DNA of 14,170 nt from a virus (Duplodnaviria > Heunggongvirae > Uroviricota > Caudoviricetes), in IMG/VR virus record IMGVR_UViG_2526164691_000021. The stretch is one strand, 5' to 3'. Shown here piece after piece: positions 1 through 10,296 of this stretch. Every line of letters starts with the position of its first letter. Positions within the stretch are counted from its first letter, which is position 1. The notes under the pieces were generated by a model. It worked only from the letters and a program-made list of their open reading frames with translations, was not told where the DNA came from and searched no databases. A program made the translations under genes and the position numbers.

Positions 1-1284
1 TTACTTCTTCGCCTCTGCAACCACTTTACTACCCACGCCGCGGTTATTGTATTCCCACATGCGGTTGTAGTTAGTGTCATTCAGATTGCGCTGTATTTCG
101 TCGTTATCATCTACGCTGCCGGTATTACCCGCAAACGGACGATTAGAGATCACCGCATCGGCCCACGGTTTAGCCGTGTTAAAACCTTCGTTGATGGCGC
201 TATCACGGATCACCACCTGACCGTTGGTATTGGCATCAACATCCAGCGAGCGGCCCAGTTGCGCCACACCATCACCGAAAGCATTGAAACGGCTGTTTAC
301 GGCGAGGAAACCGTAGTAAATGTTGGACAGCGTAGCCGGTGCAAACACATACGCTTCTTGCTGAGTACGTGAGTTCACCACGCGGAATTCGGTGTTATCG
401 AACACCACTGCGCCGCGACCAGAAACGATATCCACATCCCCTTCAATGTAGCTGTTGGTCACCAGCGTACGCGGCTGACGATTCGTTTCCAGACGGTTCT
501 GCACACCGCTGTTGGTGACAAAGAAGGTGTTCTGACGACCGAGAATGTTAACGTTGTTAATCTGTACCTGGTCACCATCAGTACGCAGTGCCACCGCCGG
601 ATGGTTACCTGCATCTACGCTATCGCCCAGCGTGTTTTCGATGGTCAGATTTTGCAGTTGCAGGCCATTGTTTTGTGACCAGAAGACCGCAGAGCAGAGA
701 ACACCGATACTGTCGCTGCGTTTGCTCTGGCAGCTATCGTACATATACCACGCTGGTTTACCTGGCATATATTTGCCGCGCGGGTTGACGTCGTGACGCC
801 AGTCGGCAGGGCTCATGCCACCATCAAGGGAAAGCCCAATCTTCACATCAATCGGTTTTTCACCTGTACCGTACAGAGTAATTCCACCCGGAGCGGCAGG
901 GACATATACCGTTCCCTGATACTCACCAGGCATCACGGCAATATACTGGCGCTTGTTGGTACGCTTGATAATTGCCGCATCTACCGCCGCCTGAATCGTG
1001 GTATGCGTTACACCTTGAGTGCCCGCCGGGCCGACAACAAAGTCAGGTTGCGCAGGCAGGGTAATCGGGGAAGGATTCCACGCTGCTGCACCTGGTGTCA
1101 GGGATGCAAAATAGTGTTGAGCATCGAAATTCTGCGCTTCTTTTGCCGACAGAATCGGGCGAGAAGAGGTACCAGGCGCGGTTTGATCAGAAGGACGTTG
1201 ATCGGGCGGGGTTGAGCTACAGGCGGTCAGCGTCACGCCAAAAGCCAATGCCAGCGCCAGACGGGAAACTGAAAATGTGTTCAC
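1..1284 (-). CDS. ybhC: YbhC, outer-membrane lipoprotein of the pectinesterase-like family (host gene flanking attλ)
   Basis: 427-aa ORF with lipoprotein signal peptide and lipobox (…GVTLTAC SS); sequence matches my recollection of E. coli YbhC; GTG start at 1284..1282; the position next to the att core fits the known attλ location between ybhC and ybhB. Confidence 0.85.
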   Translation of the reverse strand: MNTFSVSRLALALAFGVTLTACSSTPPDQRPSDQTAPGTSSRPILSAKEAQNFDAQHYFASLTPGAAAWNPSPITLPAQPDFVVGPAGTQGVTHTTIQAAVDAAIIKRTNKRQYIAVMPGEYQGTVYVPAAPGGITLYGTGEKPIDVKIGLSLDGGMSPADWRHDVNPRGKYMPGKPAWYMYDSCQSKRSDSIGVLCSAVFWSQNNGLQLQNLTIENTLGDSVDAGNHPAVALRTDGDQVQINNVNILGRQNTFFVTNSGVQNRLETNRQPRTLVTNSYIEGDVDIVSGRGAVVFDNTEFRVVNSRTQQEAYVFAPATLSNIYYGFLAVNSRFNAFGDGVAQLGRSLDVDANTNGQVVIRDSAINEGFNTAKPWADAVISNRPFAGNTGSVDDNDEIQRNLNDTNYNRMWEYNNRGVGSKVVAEAKK

Positions 1285-1330: not shown

Positions 1331-1345
1331 GCTTTTTTATACTAA
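1331..1345. other. attL: attL core (lambda att common core, O region) at the host-prophage junction
   Basis: Exact 15-bp lambda core GCTTTTTTATACTAA seen at 1331-1345; int ends 74 bp to the right, as expected for the B-O-P' junction; the A/T-rich P' arm (1346-1418) presumably carries Int arm-type and IHF sites. Confidence 0.85.
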
Positions 1346-1418: not shown

Positions 1419-2489
1419 TTATTTGATTTCAATTTTGTCCCACTCCCTGCCTCTGTCATCACGATACTGTGATGCCATGGTGTCCGACTTATGCCCGAGA
1501 AGATGTTGAGCAAACTTATCGCTTATCTGCTTCTCATAGAGTCTTGCAGACAAACTGCGCAACTCGTGAAAGGTCGGCGGATCCCCTTCGAAGGAAAGAC
1601 CTGATGCTTTTCGTGCGCGCATAAAATACCTTGATACTGTGCCGGATGAAAGCGGTTCACGATGAGTAGATGCAATTATGGTTTCTCCGCCAAGAATCTC
1701 TTTGCATTTATCAAGTGTTTCCTTCATTGATATCCCGAGAGCATCAACATGCAATGTTGTAGGGATGGCAATTTTTACGCCTGTTTTGCTTTGCTCGACA
1801 TAAAGATATCCATCTACGATATCAGACCACTTCATTTCGCATAAATCACCAACTCGCTGCCCGGTAACAACAGCCAGCTCCATTGCAAGTCTTAGCCAAC
1901 ATGGTGATGATTCTGCTGCTTGATAAATTTTCAGGTATTCGTCAGCCGTAAGTCTTGATCTCCTTACCTCTGATTTTGCTGCGCGAGTGGCAGCGACCGG
2001 GTTTGTTGTTATATGGCCTTCAGCTATTGCCTCTCGGAATGCATCGCTCAGTGTTGATCTGATTAACTTGGCTGACGCCGCCTTGCCCTCGTCTATGTAT
2101 CCACTGAGCATTGCCGCAATTTCTTTTGTGGTGATGTCTTCAAGTGGAGCATCAGGCAGCCCCCTCCTTATTGCTTTAATTTTGCTCATGTAATTTATGA
2201 GAGTCTTCTGCTTGATTCCTCTGCTGGCGAGGATTTTTTCGTAGCGATCAAGCCATGAATGTAACGTAACAGAATTATCACTGTTGATTCTCGCTGTCAG
2301 AGGCTTGTGTTTGTGTCCTGAAAATAACTCAATGTTGGCCTGTATTGCTTCAGTGATTGCTATCCTCCTGTCTCGGCCTAATCCAAACTCTTTACCCGTC
2401 CTTGGGTCCCTGTAGCAGTAATATCCATTGTTTCTTATATAAAGATTAGGGGGTAAATCCCGGCGCTCATGACTTCGCCTTCTTCCCAT
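1419..2489 (-). CDS. int: Tyrosine integrase, lambda Int type
   Basis: 356-aa ORF, near-identical to lambda Int as I recall it (MGRRRSHERRDLPPNLYIRNNGYYCYRDPRTGKEF … catalytic region with HELRS and C-terminal Tyr); 5' end overlaps xis as in lambda. Confidence 0.97.
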   Translation of the reverse strand: MGRRRSHERRDLPPNLYIRNNGYYCYRDPRTGKEFGLGRDRRIAITEAIQANIELFSGHKHKPLTARINSDNSVTLHSWLDRYEKILASRGIKQKTLINYMSKIKAIRRGLPDAPLEDITTKEIAAMLSGYIDEGKAASAKLIRSTLSDAFREAIAEGHITTNPVAATRAAKSEVRRSRLTADEYLKIYQAAESSPCWLRLAMELAVVTGQRVGDLCEMKWSDIVDGYLYVEQSKTGVKIAIPTTLHVDALGISMKETLDKCKEILGGETIIASTHREPLSSGTVSRYFMRARKASGLSFEGDPPTFHELRSLSARLYEKQISDKFAQHLLGHKSDTMASQYRDDRGREWDKIEIK

Positions 2490-2685
2490 TTCTGATCCTC
2501 TTCAAAAGGCTACCTGTTACTGGTCGATTTAAGTCAACCTTTACCGCTGATTCGTGGAACAGATACTCTCTTCCATCCTTAACCGGAGGAGGGAATATCC
2601 TGCATTCGCGCACCCATCGACGAACTGTTTCAAGGCTTCTTGGGCGTCGCTGGCGTGCATTCCACTCCTGAAGTGTCAAGTACAT
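2467..2685 (-). CDS. xis: Excisionase Xis
   Basis: 72-aa ORF MYLTLQEWNARQRRPRSLETVRRWVRECRIFPPPVKDGREYLFHESAVKVDLNRP…, matching lambda Xis; overlaps the int start. Confidence 0.95.
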   Translation of the reverse strand: MYLTLQEWNARQRRPRSLETVRRWVRECRIFPPPVKDGREYLFHESAVKVDLNRPVTGSLLKRIRNGKKAKS

Positions 2686-2791
2686 CGCAAAGTCTCCGCA
2701 ATTACACGCAAGAAAAGCCGCATTGATGCGGCGATGGTAGGTCTGGATATCATTGAGCCATGAACAGGCCTCATCGAGTGTGAGGCTGTGG

Positions 2792-3136
2792 TTAGTCCTT
2801 TCGTAACTCGCTGATTCTCCTGTAAGTCTCTGGTGCTTTGTTTCCGTGTATCTTCATTTCAGACTTCAACAGAGCAACGAGGGAATCCCATTCGTTGAGG
2901 ATGCCTTTGAATGCCGGAACGCGCTTTGCAACCTTGTCGAATGAATCTCTGATTTCTGGAATCTTCTCAACAAGTGCAACGCATCGTCGGAAGTCTGCTG
3001 CGTCATGGGGAGCGCCGAAGTGATGACCATAGATATTCTTTTTCAGGCCACATGCGATTGAGGCAAGAGTTGCGCTACTGATGCCAACATCGCCAGTCGA
3101 TTGCCATTTCAAAACCTTCATAGACAAATCTGACAT
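2792..3136 (-). CDS. Hypothetical protein, 114 aa, unknown function
   Basis: ORF with ATG at 3136 preceded by GGAGA at a suitable distance; sits between xis and a small lambda-like ORF; no family recognised. Confidence 0.55.
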   Translation of the reverse strand: MSDLSMKVLKWQSTGDVGISSATLASIACGLKKNIYGHHFGAPHDAADFRRCVALVEKIPEIRDSFDKVAKRVPAFKGILNEWDSLVALLKSEMKIHGNKAPETYRRISELRKD

Positions 3137-3163
3137 TTCTTGTCTCCAATAAAAAAACCTCCA

Positions 3164-3331
3164 TCAGGCGGCTTGGTGTTCTTTCAGTTCTTCAATTCGA
3201 ATATTGGTTACGTCTGCATGTGCTATCTGCGCCCATATCATCCAGTGGTCATAGCAGTCATTGATGTTCTCTGCTTCGATAACTCTGTTGAATGGTTCTC
3301 CATTCCATTCACCTGTGACTCGGAAGTGCAT
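3164..3331 (-). CDS. Small hypothetical protein, 55 aa (MHFRVTGEWNGEPFNRVIEAENINDCYDHWMIWAQIAHADVTNIRIEELKEHQAA)
   Basis: Hand-translated; ATG at 3331 preceded by GGAGA with 7-nt spacing; not in the supplied ORF track (below its length cut-off); resembles a small ORF found right of xis in lambda, as far as I recall. Confidence 0.45.
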   Translation of the reverse strand: MHFRVTGEWNGEPFNRVIEAENINDCYDHWMIWAQIAHADVTNIRIEELKEHQAA

Positions 3332-3403
3332 TTATCATCTCCATAAAACAAAATCCGCCGTAGCGAGTTCAGATAAAAGAAATCCCCGCGAGTGCGAGGA
3401 TTG

Positions 3404-3688
3404 TTATTCATTGCCGATATTCACCTTTATCGCGAACACCTTTACCGGTTTATCACCGAAGTGCGGATGTGTGATTGTCTTGATTTCATATCCGTCATAC
3501 GGAACATCAATTCTGCGGCTGGAATCGTCGCGCTTCGGATATCCCTTTGTGATAATCAGGCGGTCATACTCCCGGAACATAATTCGCTTATTCCAATAGT
3601 CATTACACAGGCGATACTCTTCCGTTTTCTCTCCTCGAATCATGGCATCGAAGTATTCACCTTTGACGGCAAGTTGTAGGTTAGCCAC
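3404..3688 (-). CDS. ASCH / DUF3850-like small protein, 94 aa
   Basis: N-terminal pattern LQLAVKGEYFDAMIRGEKTEEYR resembles the DUF3850/ASCH (PUA-like fold) signature; strong SD (AGGAGG) before ATG 3688; 8-nt overlap with the upstream gene. Confidence 0.5.
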   Translation of the reverse strand: MANLQLAVKGEYFDAMIRGEKTEEYRLCNDYWNKRIMFREYDRLIITKGYPKRDDSSRRIDVPYDGYEIKTITHPHFGDKPVKVFAIKVNIGNE

Positions 3689-3983
3689 GGTTAACCTCCT
3701 GCGGAGTAGCCTTTACAAGCACTGGTGCAAATCCATCTTCATTAAGGTTATGAATATAGACTTCTGTTCTCCTGCGCTCTTCAACGTTTAATATTGTTTC
3801 TGGATCATAAACCCATACTTTCATTCGACTATTCCATGAAGAAATCGCTTCAGATCTAGTTCGTTTTTCTGGTCCTTGGGCACCACATTTGCATGACACA
3901 TAGCGCATTTTCCCTCTGATACTGAATGAGTATCCGATGTTAAGCACAGTGGAACCACAGAATGGGCAGCGATATAGATTCAT
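3681..3983 (-). CDS. Lar-family restriction-alleviation-like protein, 100 aa, with C-terminal extension
   Basis: N-terminal CPFCG…CxC…EAISSWNSR motif typical of the Lar family (Rac prophage Lar type); ATGA stop/start overlap with the upstream gene; SD AGGTGG. Confidence 0.55.
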   Translation of the reverse strand: MNLYRCPFCGSTVLNIGYSFSIRGKMRYVSCKCGAQGPEKRTRSEAISSWNSRMKVWVYDPETILNVEERRRTEVYIHNLNEDGFAPVLVKATPQEVNRG

Positions 3984-8746: not shown

Positions 8747-8967
8747 AGAAGATTTCCAATAATCAGAACAAGTCGGCTCCTGTTTAGTTACGAGCGACAT
8801 TGCTCCGTGTATTCACTCGTTGGAATGAATACACAGTGCAGTGTTTATTCGTATGCCTGTCTTTTAACCACATCAGGCTCGGTGGTTCTCGTGTACCCCT
8901 ACAGCGAGAAATCGGATAAACTCTATTCACCCCTACAGAGAGAATGATGGAGATTCTGGATTTGCCC

Positions 8968-9873
8968 CTATATTTCCAGACACCTGTTATCACTTAACCC
9001 ATTACTGGCTTGCTGCCGTAGATATTCCCGTGGCGAGCGATAACCCAGTGCACTATGCGGATGCCATTCGTTATAATGCTCGAACGCCTCTGCAAGGTTC
9101 TTTGCTGCCGTTAACCCGTCTGGTTTGGGCATGACACTGATGTAGTCACGCTTTATCGTTTTCACGAAGCTCTCTGCTATGCCGTTACTCTCCGGACTCC
9201 GCACCGCCGTGCTCTTCGGTTCAAGCCCCAACATCCGGGCAAACTGCCGTGTTTCATTAGCCCGGTAGCATGAACCATTATCCGTCAGCCACTCTACTGG
9301 AGACGCCGGAAGCTCGTTGCCGAAGCGGCGTTCCACCGCTCCCAGCATGACGTCCTGTACTGTTTCACTGTTGAAGCCGCCCGTAGTGACCGCCCAGTGC
9401 AGTGCCTCACGGTCACAGCAGTCCAGCGCGAACGTGACTCGCAGTTTTTCTCCGTTATCACAGCGGAACTCGAACCCGTCAGAGCACCATCGCTGATTAC
9501 TTTCTTTCACAGCCACTCTGCCTGTATGTGCCCGTTTCGATGGCGGTACAGCAGGTTTTCGCTCAAGCAACAGCGCATTCTGGCGCATGATCCGGTAAAC
9601 ACGTTTGGCATTGATCGCAGGCATACCATCAAGTTCTGCCTGTCTGCGAAGCAGCGCCCATACCCGACGATAACCATACGTGGGCAGCTCTCCGATAACA
9701 TGGTGTATACGGAGAAGCACATCCGTATCATCAGTGTGACGACTGCGGCGGCCATCCATCCAGTCATCGGTTCGTCTGAGAATGACGTGCAACTGCGCAC
9801 GCGACACCCGGAGACAACGGCTGACTAAGCTTACTCCCCATCCCCGGGCAATAAGGGCGCGTGCGCTATCCAC
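8968..9873 (-). CDS. insD: IS2 transposase OrfB (InsD), normally made as an InsCD fusion by -1 frameshift
   Basis: 301-aa ORF with IS3-family DDE transposase sequence matching IS2 InsD; overlaps the insC 3' end in the -1 frame. Confidence 0.9.
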
Positions 9874-10196
9874 TTTTTTGCCCGTCCATATTCAACGGCT
9901 TCTTTGAGGAGTTCATTTTCCATCGTTTTCTTGCCGAGCAGGCGCTGGAGTTCTTTAATCTGCTTCATGGCGGCAGCAAGTTCAGAGGCAGGAACAACCT
10001 GTTCTCCGGCGGCGACAGCAGTAAGACTTCCTTCCTGGTATTGCTTACGCCAGAGAAATAACTGGCTGGCTGCTACACCATGTTGCCGGGCAACGAGGGA
10101 GACCGTCATCCCTGGTTCAAAGCTCTGCTGAACAATTGCGATCTTTTCCTGTGTGGTACGCCGTCTGCGTTTCTCCGGTCCTAAGACATCAATCAT
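9831..10196 (-). CDS. insC: IS2 OrfA (InsC), HTH regulatory / transposase N-terminal protein
   Basis: 121 aa starting [41 protein letters not shown]…; the track ORF extends 15 codons upstream, but the IS2 protein starts at the ATG at 10196. Confidence 0.9.
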
Positions 10197-10296
10197 CTGC
10201 TCTCCAATGACTAGTCTAAAAACTAGTATTAAGACTATCACTTAAATAAGTGATACTGGTTGTCTGGAGATTCAGGGGGCCAGTCTAGATTCACCG

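Follow-up and report, generated by a model that had tools for sequence, protein, structure and literature searches.

ORF114 and its locus

The sequence analyzed here, IMG/VR record IMGVR_UViG_2526164691_000021 of a member of the Caudoviricetes (14,170 nt, hereafter the window), carries on its minus strand an open reading frame (ORF) of 114 codons, ORF114 (2792–3136), which is located between the excisionase gene xis and orf55, a short gene shared with phage lambda. The interval that separates these two genes (2686–3163) is the exact gap between the start codon of xis and the stop codon of the 55-codon orf55. ORF114 has its own Shine-Dalgarno (SD) sequence, GGAG (3144–3147, minus strand), which can be read directly in the sequence 7 nt before the ATG and is also annotated as a ribosome-binding site in phage 434. 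An initial sequence-only reading of the window had correctly placed a 114-aa gene with an SD of its own between xis and the lambda-like ORF. Besides ORF114, the interval contains the pI promoter region with its CII site, the t'I terminator, a relic of a second xis gene and a weakened hairpin. The ORF114 product is a predicted all-helical protein of PHROG 1229.

ORF114 is a real gene, because its product matches phrog_1229 over its full length (E = 2.2e-51, residues 1–114 against profile positions 1–113 of 116), the ratio of nonsynonymous to synonymous substitution rates (dN/dS) is 0.036 among 50 distinct alleles from IMG/VR loci, and the AlphaFold model has a mean predicted local distance difference test (pLDDT) score of 95.8. 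On the same three grounds a chance ORF was rejected. The protein is under strong purifying selection.

The sequence-only reading had not recognised the gene and had seen no obvious family for its product, and in both respects it has to be corrected. The gene is already known as phage 434 ORF114, HK022 gp32 and a member of PHROG 1229, a very large phage family, none of them with a functional description. By megablast, the 1.3-kb region is 99.8% identical to Stx1a-converting phages, 98.7% to phage 434 and 96.5% to HK022. The GenBank record of phage 434 (M60848) is annotated in the order int, xis, t'-I, 'ORF114', 'ORF55', tL4, and its ORF114 (AAA67902.1; CPT_434_33 in OL657226) is the same gene as that of the window, with 99.1% amino acid identity, that is, one or two amino acid changes. 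The two share the place between xis/t'I and orf55, the ribosome-binding site and the weakened upstream hairpin; unlike in 434, the gene of the window is carried by a prophage of the Stx1a type that has an IS2 insertion upstream and, for recombination, a P22-like Erf/Abc2 module. HK022 gp32 (AUM59808.1, annotated 'N15 early protein homolog') is 96% identical to ORF114 and has the same flanks; HK022 differs from the window in its intact upstream hairpin (-13.2 kcal/mol) and in a xis relic that has kept its frame. In RefSeq, ORF114 is the hypothetical protein WP_001281774.1 of E. coli O26 RM10386, which carries the 478-bp interval at 99.8% identity. At a coverage of ≥80%, the interval DNA is present in at least 909 of the 5426 complete E. 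coli genomes, roughly one in six. A literature search by accession numbers returned nothing on ORF114, and a review of the exo-xis region (PMC8614690) discusses orf55 but not ORF114.

The window starts with the E. coli gene ybhC (1–1284, minus strand), which is followed by an exact match to the lambda att core, GCTTTTTTATACTAA (1331–1345, plus strand), by a lambda-type int (1419–2489) and by the gene for a lambda-type excisionase, xis (2467–2685, minus strand; Pfam Exc, E = 3.9e-41), the downstream neighbour of ORF114. This order places the window at the attL end of a lambdoid prophage, of the Stx1a type, that is inserted at att-lambda. The upstream neighbour, orf55 (3164–3331, minus strand; PHROG 676, E = 6.6e-40), is the homologue of lambda lambdap35/orf55, with 100% amino acid identity. 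The leftward early operon runs on the minus strand, and ORF114 shares it with Lar-like, ASCH-like, Ea22-like, Abc2 and Erf genes.

The genes in lambda's exo-xis region (orf55, ea8.5, ea22, orf61, orf63 and orf60a) are small, non-essential, mostly without an assigned function and expressed early from pL, and orf55 has been modelled as a small alpha/beta protein (PMC8614690). They lie in the same operon segment as ORF114, and orf55 also shares its cassette layout, in which the SD and the ORF are followed by a hairpin with a T-run. In contrast to orf55, ORF114 is predicted to be all-helical, and it is unrelated to the genes of this region in sequence and fold. Its assignment to the conserved exo-xis block (orf60a, orf63, orf61, orf73, ea22) was rejected, as it belongs to a different PHROG and is absent from lambda; it had no matches to the Pfam families Ead_Ea22, DUF1382 and DUF1317, and profile comparison with lambda Ea8.5 gave a probability of 0.04%, i.e., no relation.

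Terminators and predicted expression of ORF114

On the minus strand, the order of features is tL4, orf55, a hairpin, the SD and ORF114, a 57-nt relic, t'I, the CII site with pI, and xis. The tL4 terminator (3381–3402, minus strand; fold energy -14 kcal/mol, z = -5.2) lies upstream of orf55; a terminator scan found it, and the records of 434 and HK022 both carry it under the name tL4. A second hairpin with a U-run overlaps the orf55 stop codon (3151–3172, minus strand). By alignment and fold energies, it is homologous to the terminator that, in lambda, lies immediately beside the CII site and pI. Its fold energy is -7.5 kcal/mol in both the window and 434, compared to -13.2 in HK022 and -16.1 kcal/mol in lambda; a mismatch in the stem weakens the hairpin in the window and in 434, and the value of -7.5 is not distinguishable from those of shuffled sequences. 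Termination in front of ORF114 may thereby be relieved. Downstream of the gene, the intrinsic terminator t'I (2713–2732, minus strand; t'-I in M60848) consists of a stem-loop at 2717–2732 followed by UUUU, was detected by the same kind of scan and has a fold energy of -10.5 kcal/mol. The pI promoter region (2680–2711, minus strand) was positioned by transfer from the phage 434 annotation, whereas the CII site TTGCGTGTAATTGC, of the form TTGC-N6-TTGC (2698–2711, minus strand), was read directly in the sequence; the modern 434 record likewise has pI with CII sites annotated just downstream of ORF114.

No sigma-70-like promoter was found in a simple consensus scan of positions 2400–3800, as against 2.1 expected from shuffled sequences. 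ORF114 is the final cistron of the pL operon, ahead of pI, xis and int, and has no promoter of its own. Its earlier description as a non-core accessory gene at the int-proximal end of that operon is correct. Since the gene is co-oriented with the pL operon, is preceded by terminators and has no promoter, its expression should depend on antitermination; judging from this anatomy and from lambda biology, ORF114 should be a delayed-early gene that is silent in the lysogen.

The same features bear on the idea that the prophage expresses ORF114 to the benefit of its host, as a moron or lysogenic-conversion cassette, for instance in superinfection exclusion. Like the morons of lambdoid phages (e.g., HK022 cor), ORF114 is present or absent as a unit in close relatives and has a 3' terminator, t'I, directly downstream, so that it is bounded by terminator hairpins; it is also very common in E. 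coli prophages. In Vibrio phage K75 (L092, 2872–3330), a homologue of 152 aa, the only gene there on the opposite strand, is flanked by the tape-measure gene and by further tail genes. Unlike morons, however, ORF114 has no detected promoter in the scanned region and lies inside an early operon, pL, in the same orientation as the rest of it, and expression in the lysogen is not expected. The GC content of the gene is only slightly above that of its flanks, its product has no PADLOC match, and the family occurs in early operons, such as that of Sashavirus. 9NA-like phages are virulent. We consider a moron role very unlikely.

Several other features of the operon were recorded. Just upstream of orf55 (window 3404–3983, minus strand; also L128, 4220–4799) are a gene for a phrog_625 protein (3404–3688, minus strand), labelled as an ASCH-domain protein in RefSeq, and a Lar-family restriction-alleviation gene (3681–3983, minus strand), which is an intact 100-codon ORF here but is annotated as a pseudogene in RM10386. 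An IS3-family insertion sequence (IS), apparently IS2, is inserted in the pL operon upstream of ORF114, xis and int (approximately 8952–10291, minus strand). It encodes OrfA (9831–10241) and OrfB (8968–9873), has imperfect inverted repeats (8965–8996 and 10247–10278) and is 99.9% identical to plasmid copies; it could exert polarity on the distal pL genes of this prophage. A scan of the whole window at the Rfam gathering thresholds produced no matches.

A mosaic joint rather than a simple insertion

The sequence-only reading had taken ORF114 for an inserted module between lambda-like flanks. Alignment with lambda, 434 and HK022 confirmed that the flanks are lambda-like and that the gene is absent from lambda, which lacks 439 bp corresponding to window positions 2713–3151. 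This indel has t'I at its left edge and the hairpin at the end of orf55 at its right edge; its boundary is ambiguous by a few bases, with an A-run at both edges. The part of the claim that proved too simple is the insertion. Translations, tblastn and DNA alignment all show that the 57 nt adjoining the ORF114 stop codon (2736–2793, minus strand), HSLTLDEACS...ISRPT in translation, are a remnant of a P22-type xis, namely of its 5' end; the functional lambda-type xis lies next to them. The relic lacks an ATG, and it is in frame in HK022 but frameshifted in the window and in 434, where the translation runs HSLTLDEACS and then, after a +1 frameshift, ISRPTIAAS. In tblastn comparisons, the unshifted consensus peptide of related loci matches, at 86–95%, the N-terminal 21 residues of the Xis proteins of P22, epsilon34, ST64T, BTP1 and the Sf phages. 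In a DNA alignment that included Salmonella phage 118970_sal4, HK022 and PhiR70_1, homology with 118970_sal4 extends from xis codon 4 to codon 21 and ends exactly at the start of the t'I hairpin.

In P22-like Salmonella phages, an ORF114 homologue (61% identity) is followed within a few nucleotides by a P22-type xis and then by int, and phage PhiR70_1 carries the unit of relic, t'I, pI and lambda-type xis without ORF114. Hence what separates the window from lambda is a mosaic joint, formed by earlier exchanges of int-xis modules, and not a clean insertion. A simple insertion into a lambda backbone was rejected in view of the P22-type xis relic and of the stackable cassettes described below.

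In a spread sample of E. coli genomes with lambda-type xis as well as orf55, these genes are contiguous, as in lambda, in 34 cases and split by approximately 440 bp, as in 434, in seven. The lambda arrangement is the commoner one in that sample, and both alleles are common. The sequence some 45 nt upstream of the homologue was also compared across the 80 closest IMG/VR loci (L010–L089). The orf55 hairpin with its T-run precedes ORF114 in 51 of them; in the remaining 29, ORF114 directly follows the tL4 leader, GTTTTGTTTTATGGAGA, and orf55 is missing. Because there are two upstream arrangements and both have their junctions in one shared string, 'T-run + TTTTAT(T)GGAGA', orf55 and ORF114 behave as independent, stackable cassettes, the ORF114 segment being one of several that are swapped at T-run/SD junctions.

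Truncated and fused forms of the gene were also seen. The 933W-like Stx2 phages retain no more of ORF114 than its N-terminal 56 codons, at 93% identity, which correspond to phrog_8038 (AB255436.1, 39991–40158; KP682381.1, 2887–3054; AP012533.1, 2869–3036). Close matches further include singleton chimeras with PF04447, ERF, Ea22 and Kil; these were rejected as genuine fusions, being singletons and probably recombinant or assembly chimeras. ORF114 looks like a frequent recombination breakpoint.

The PHROG 1229 family

PHROG 1229 and the related phrog_15291, phrog_8038 and phrog_4212 have no function assigned in PHROGs, and no feature sets the window protein apart from the family. An exhaustive profile search retrieved 2770 cluster representatives (at 50% identity) with E ≤ 1e-3, and tblastn detected relatives in 277 phage records, including P22-like phages of Salmonella (61% identity), phages of Vibrio (31–44%), Mannheimia (33%), Gordonia and Arthrobacter (about 31%), Cronobacter and Yersinia, and Sashavirus. 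Genome scans added members from Bacteroidota, Chloroflexi, Acidobacteria, Actinobacteria, Patescibacteria and a metagenome-assembled genome of Methanoperedens. PHROG 1229 is a phage-only family, found in phages and prophages of many phyla.

Functional annotation could not be transferred from any of these sources. Pfam, NCBIfam and PADLOC scans of the ORF114 protein produced nothing (for PADLOC, 0 families at E ≤ 0.1), and for 59 relatives the Pfam matches at E ≤ 1 amounted to no more than sporadic noise (mS41 SAM, TPR_7, Myb/SANT). Sequence searches of PDB with the single sequence and with the profile had no hit below E = 0.89. Among 40 longer members, no Pfam domain was found and PHROGs showed only the PHROG 1229 family itself. 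The names of relatives were uninformative in every source, a second large protein search returned 'hypothetical protein' only, and one JGI label, 'UTP:GlnB uridylyltransferase', is regarded as spurious.

With 11 close sequences, AlphaFold produced a model with a pLDDT of 70.8, and Foldseek found nothing in PDB with this first model as the query. With an alignment of 59 sequences, the pLDDT rose to 95.8, with a predicted template modelling score of 0.88 and seven helices. The Foldseek matches in BFVD were Q7Y3W5 (template modelling score, TM, 0.92; root-mean-square deviation 1.6), A0A2I7RNV6 (TM 0.85) and a protein of Clavibacter phage CN1A (TM 0.79), that is, uncharacterised relatives, plus a Sylvanvirus protein at 15% identity. 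Remote homology and structure prediction thus provided a family and a confident model but no functional match. In two relatives, P0066 (333 aa) and P0194 (252 aa), a single polypeptide contains the ORF114 domain twice in tandem, a hint that proteins with one domain function as dimers.

The predicted pair of helices at residues 3–14 and 19–28, together with the G-x-S-S-x-T motif, raises the question whether ORF114 is a nucleic-acid-binding regulator with a helix-turn-helix (HTH)-like DNA- or RNA-binding unit. The window protein is basic, with an isoelectric point of 9.4, and a few members have sub-threshold Pfam matches of the Myb/SANT, SAM and SAP-like types. However, the median isoelectric point in the family is 6.4, in a span of about 5 to about 9.4, and acidic members are numerous, which argues against a generic electrostatic DNA binder; in the predicted model, the two helices are joined by a loop that exceeds a classical HTH turn in length, and no HTH model of Pfam matches. 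Such a regulator therefore seems to us quite improbable.

Conservation in the family is concentrated in a few polar residues. Among 169 non-redundant full-length members, S20, P43, D45, D48, R51 and C52 are invariant and W11, G18, S21, L55, P60 and W83 are at least 96% conserved; the window protein has all of W11, G18, S20, S21, P43, D45, D48, R51, C52 and W83, each of which is invariant or conserved to at least 99% in this set. Strict invariance of S20, D45, D48, R51 and C52 across many phyla is unusual for a mere protein binder and, like the occasional fusion or adjacency to a MazG-like dNTP pyrophosphohydrolase (PF04447) and to dUTPase, speaks for a small enzyme in which the invariant Cys, Asp and Ser would act on a substrate that is a nucleotide or is phosphorylated. 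Against this, no known catalytic motif or fold was found, the invariant residues are located where helix caps are expected, and the fusions are the probable chimeras mentioned above. We would give a small enzyme of this kind little chance of being correct.

Gene neighbourhoods and the link to integration and excision

In about 75 of the 80 close IMG/VR loci, the next gene downstream of ORF114 encodes either an integrase or an excisionase, and the excisionases are of no fewer than four unrelated types. This proximity suggests an accessory factor of integration or excision, such as a modulator of the activity, stability or expression of Xis or Int, that is kept next to xis for functional reasons. 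It extends to other temperate phages: the P22-like Salmonella homologue ends a few nucleotides before xis, and the Mannheimia phage homologue precedes a 73-aa ORF that is followed by int. Against this, an integrase is found among the four nearest genes in only one of 34 phylogenetically diverse loci, and homologues are present in Mu-like contexts and in Sashavirus early operons. Moreover, lambda, with a near-identical int-xis module, works without ORF114, and the protein has no similarity to any family of Xis or recombination directionality factors (RDFs). An excisionase or RDF as such was rejected: neither the protein nor the 59 relatives had a Pfam match at E ≤ 1 to the Xis families (winged-helix Exc, HTH_17, P22 Xis), and the predicted fold is all-helical. 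Overall, a role as an accessory of integration or excision is unlikely.

The neighbours in the 34 diverse loci are accessory genes of early functions, host takeover and DNA metabolism: DNA methylases, DUF5131, Mu GemA/Gp11/DUF3164, dUTPase, YopX and exonucleases. A recurrent partner gene was sought in these loci and not found. ORF114 homologues are also part of the early operon of Sashavirus, where the gene is at the operon end, and of that of a Gordonia phage. Vibrio phage D60 (L009) has a Lar-like gene at a distance of about 2 kb from its ORF114 homologue.

Proposed role of ORF114

We tentatively favour the view that ORF114 encodes a stand-alone accessory protein of the lytic phase that acts on a broadly conserved target, in host takeover or counter-defence. 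The neighbours in the 34 diverse loci, the early operons of Sashavirus and the Gordonia phage, and the operon shared with Lar-like, Abc2 and Erf genes in the window support a stand-alone early module. Production of the protein would require N-antiterminated transcription from pL to read through, as happens once the phage has infected a cell or been induced but not in the lysogen. The compact seven-helix product would work as a stand-alone module, probably as a dimer. Its target would be conserved across bacteria, either a small ligand or nucleic acid or a conserved host protein, and contact would probably be made through the invariant polar cluster G18-x-S20-S21/P43-x-D45-P-x-D48-x-x-R51-C52. 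The effect would be felt during lytic development, as host takeover or counter-defence. On this proposal, ORF114 would be neither a lysogenic-conversion gene nor part of the site-specific recombination machinery.

Several observations weigh against this proposal. The negative promoter result comes from a simple consensus scan, and the IS2 element upstream in the operon may have altered expression in this particular prophage. In the predicted structure, D45-P-x-D48 and S20-S21 are at helix N-termini and could be purely structural capping boxes. The almost invariable position of the gene directly upstream of xis or int in temperate phages of enterobacteria and Pasteurellaceae leaves room for a role in excision or integration, and the lone opposite-strand copy in the tail cluster of K75 is a moron-like placement.

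A more specific possibility, which we regard as rather doubtful, is that the fold of ORF114 and PHROG 1229 is new and has a conserved site for ligand binding or catalysis, made up in the predicted model of S20-S21, D45, D48 and R51-C52, and that phages of many bacterial phyla use it early against a universal target. If so, the protein might, for example, modify a signal derived from a nucleotide, or some other conserved molecule, or keep it sequestered, and PHROG 1229 would be a widespread family of host-takeover or counter-defence proteins.

Implications

For this particular locus little changes: phage 434 ORF114 has been in GenBank for decades, and thousands of E. coli genomes carry the gene with a hypothetical-protein annotation. 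The anatomy of the cassette, with a fossil of a P22-type xis beside a lambda-type xis, provides a small, clean example of the shuffling of accessory genes among lambdoid phages. PHROG 1229 itself remains a worthwhile target, as it is found in Stx-converting prophages as well as in phages of many phyla, is under strong purifying selection, and combines a confident structural model that has no match in PDB with an invariant polar motif. Assigning a function to this family would annotate a very large slice of phage dark matter.
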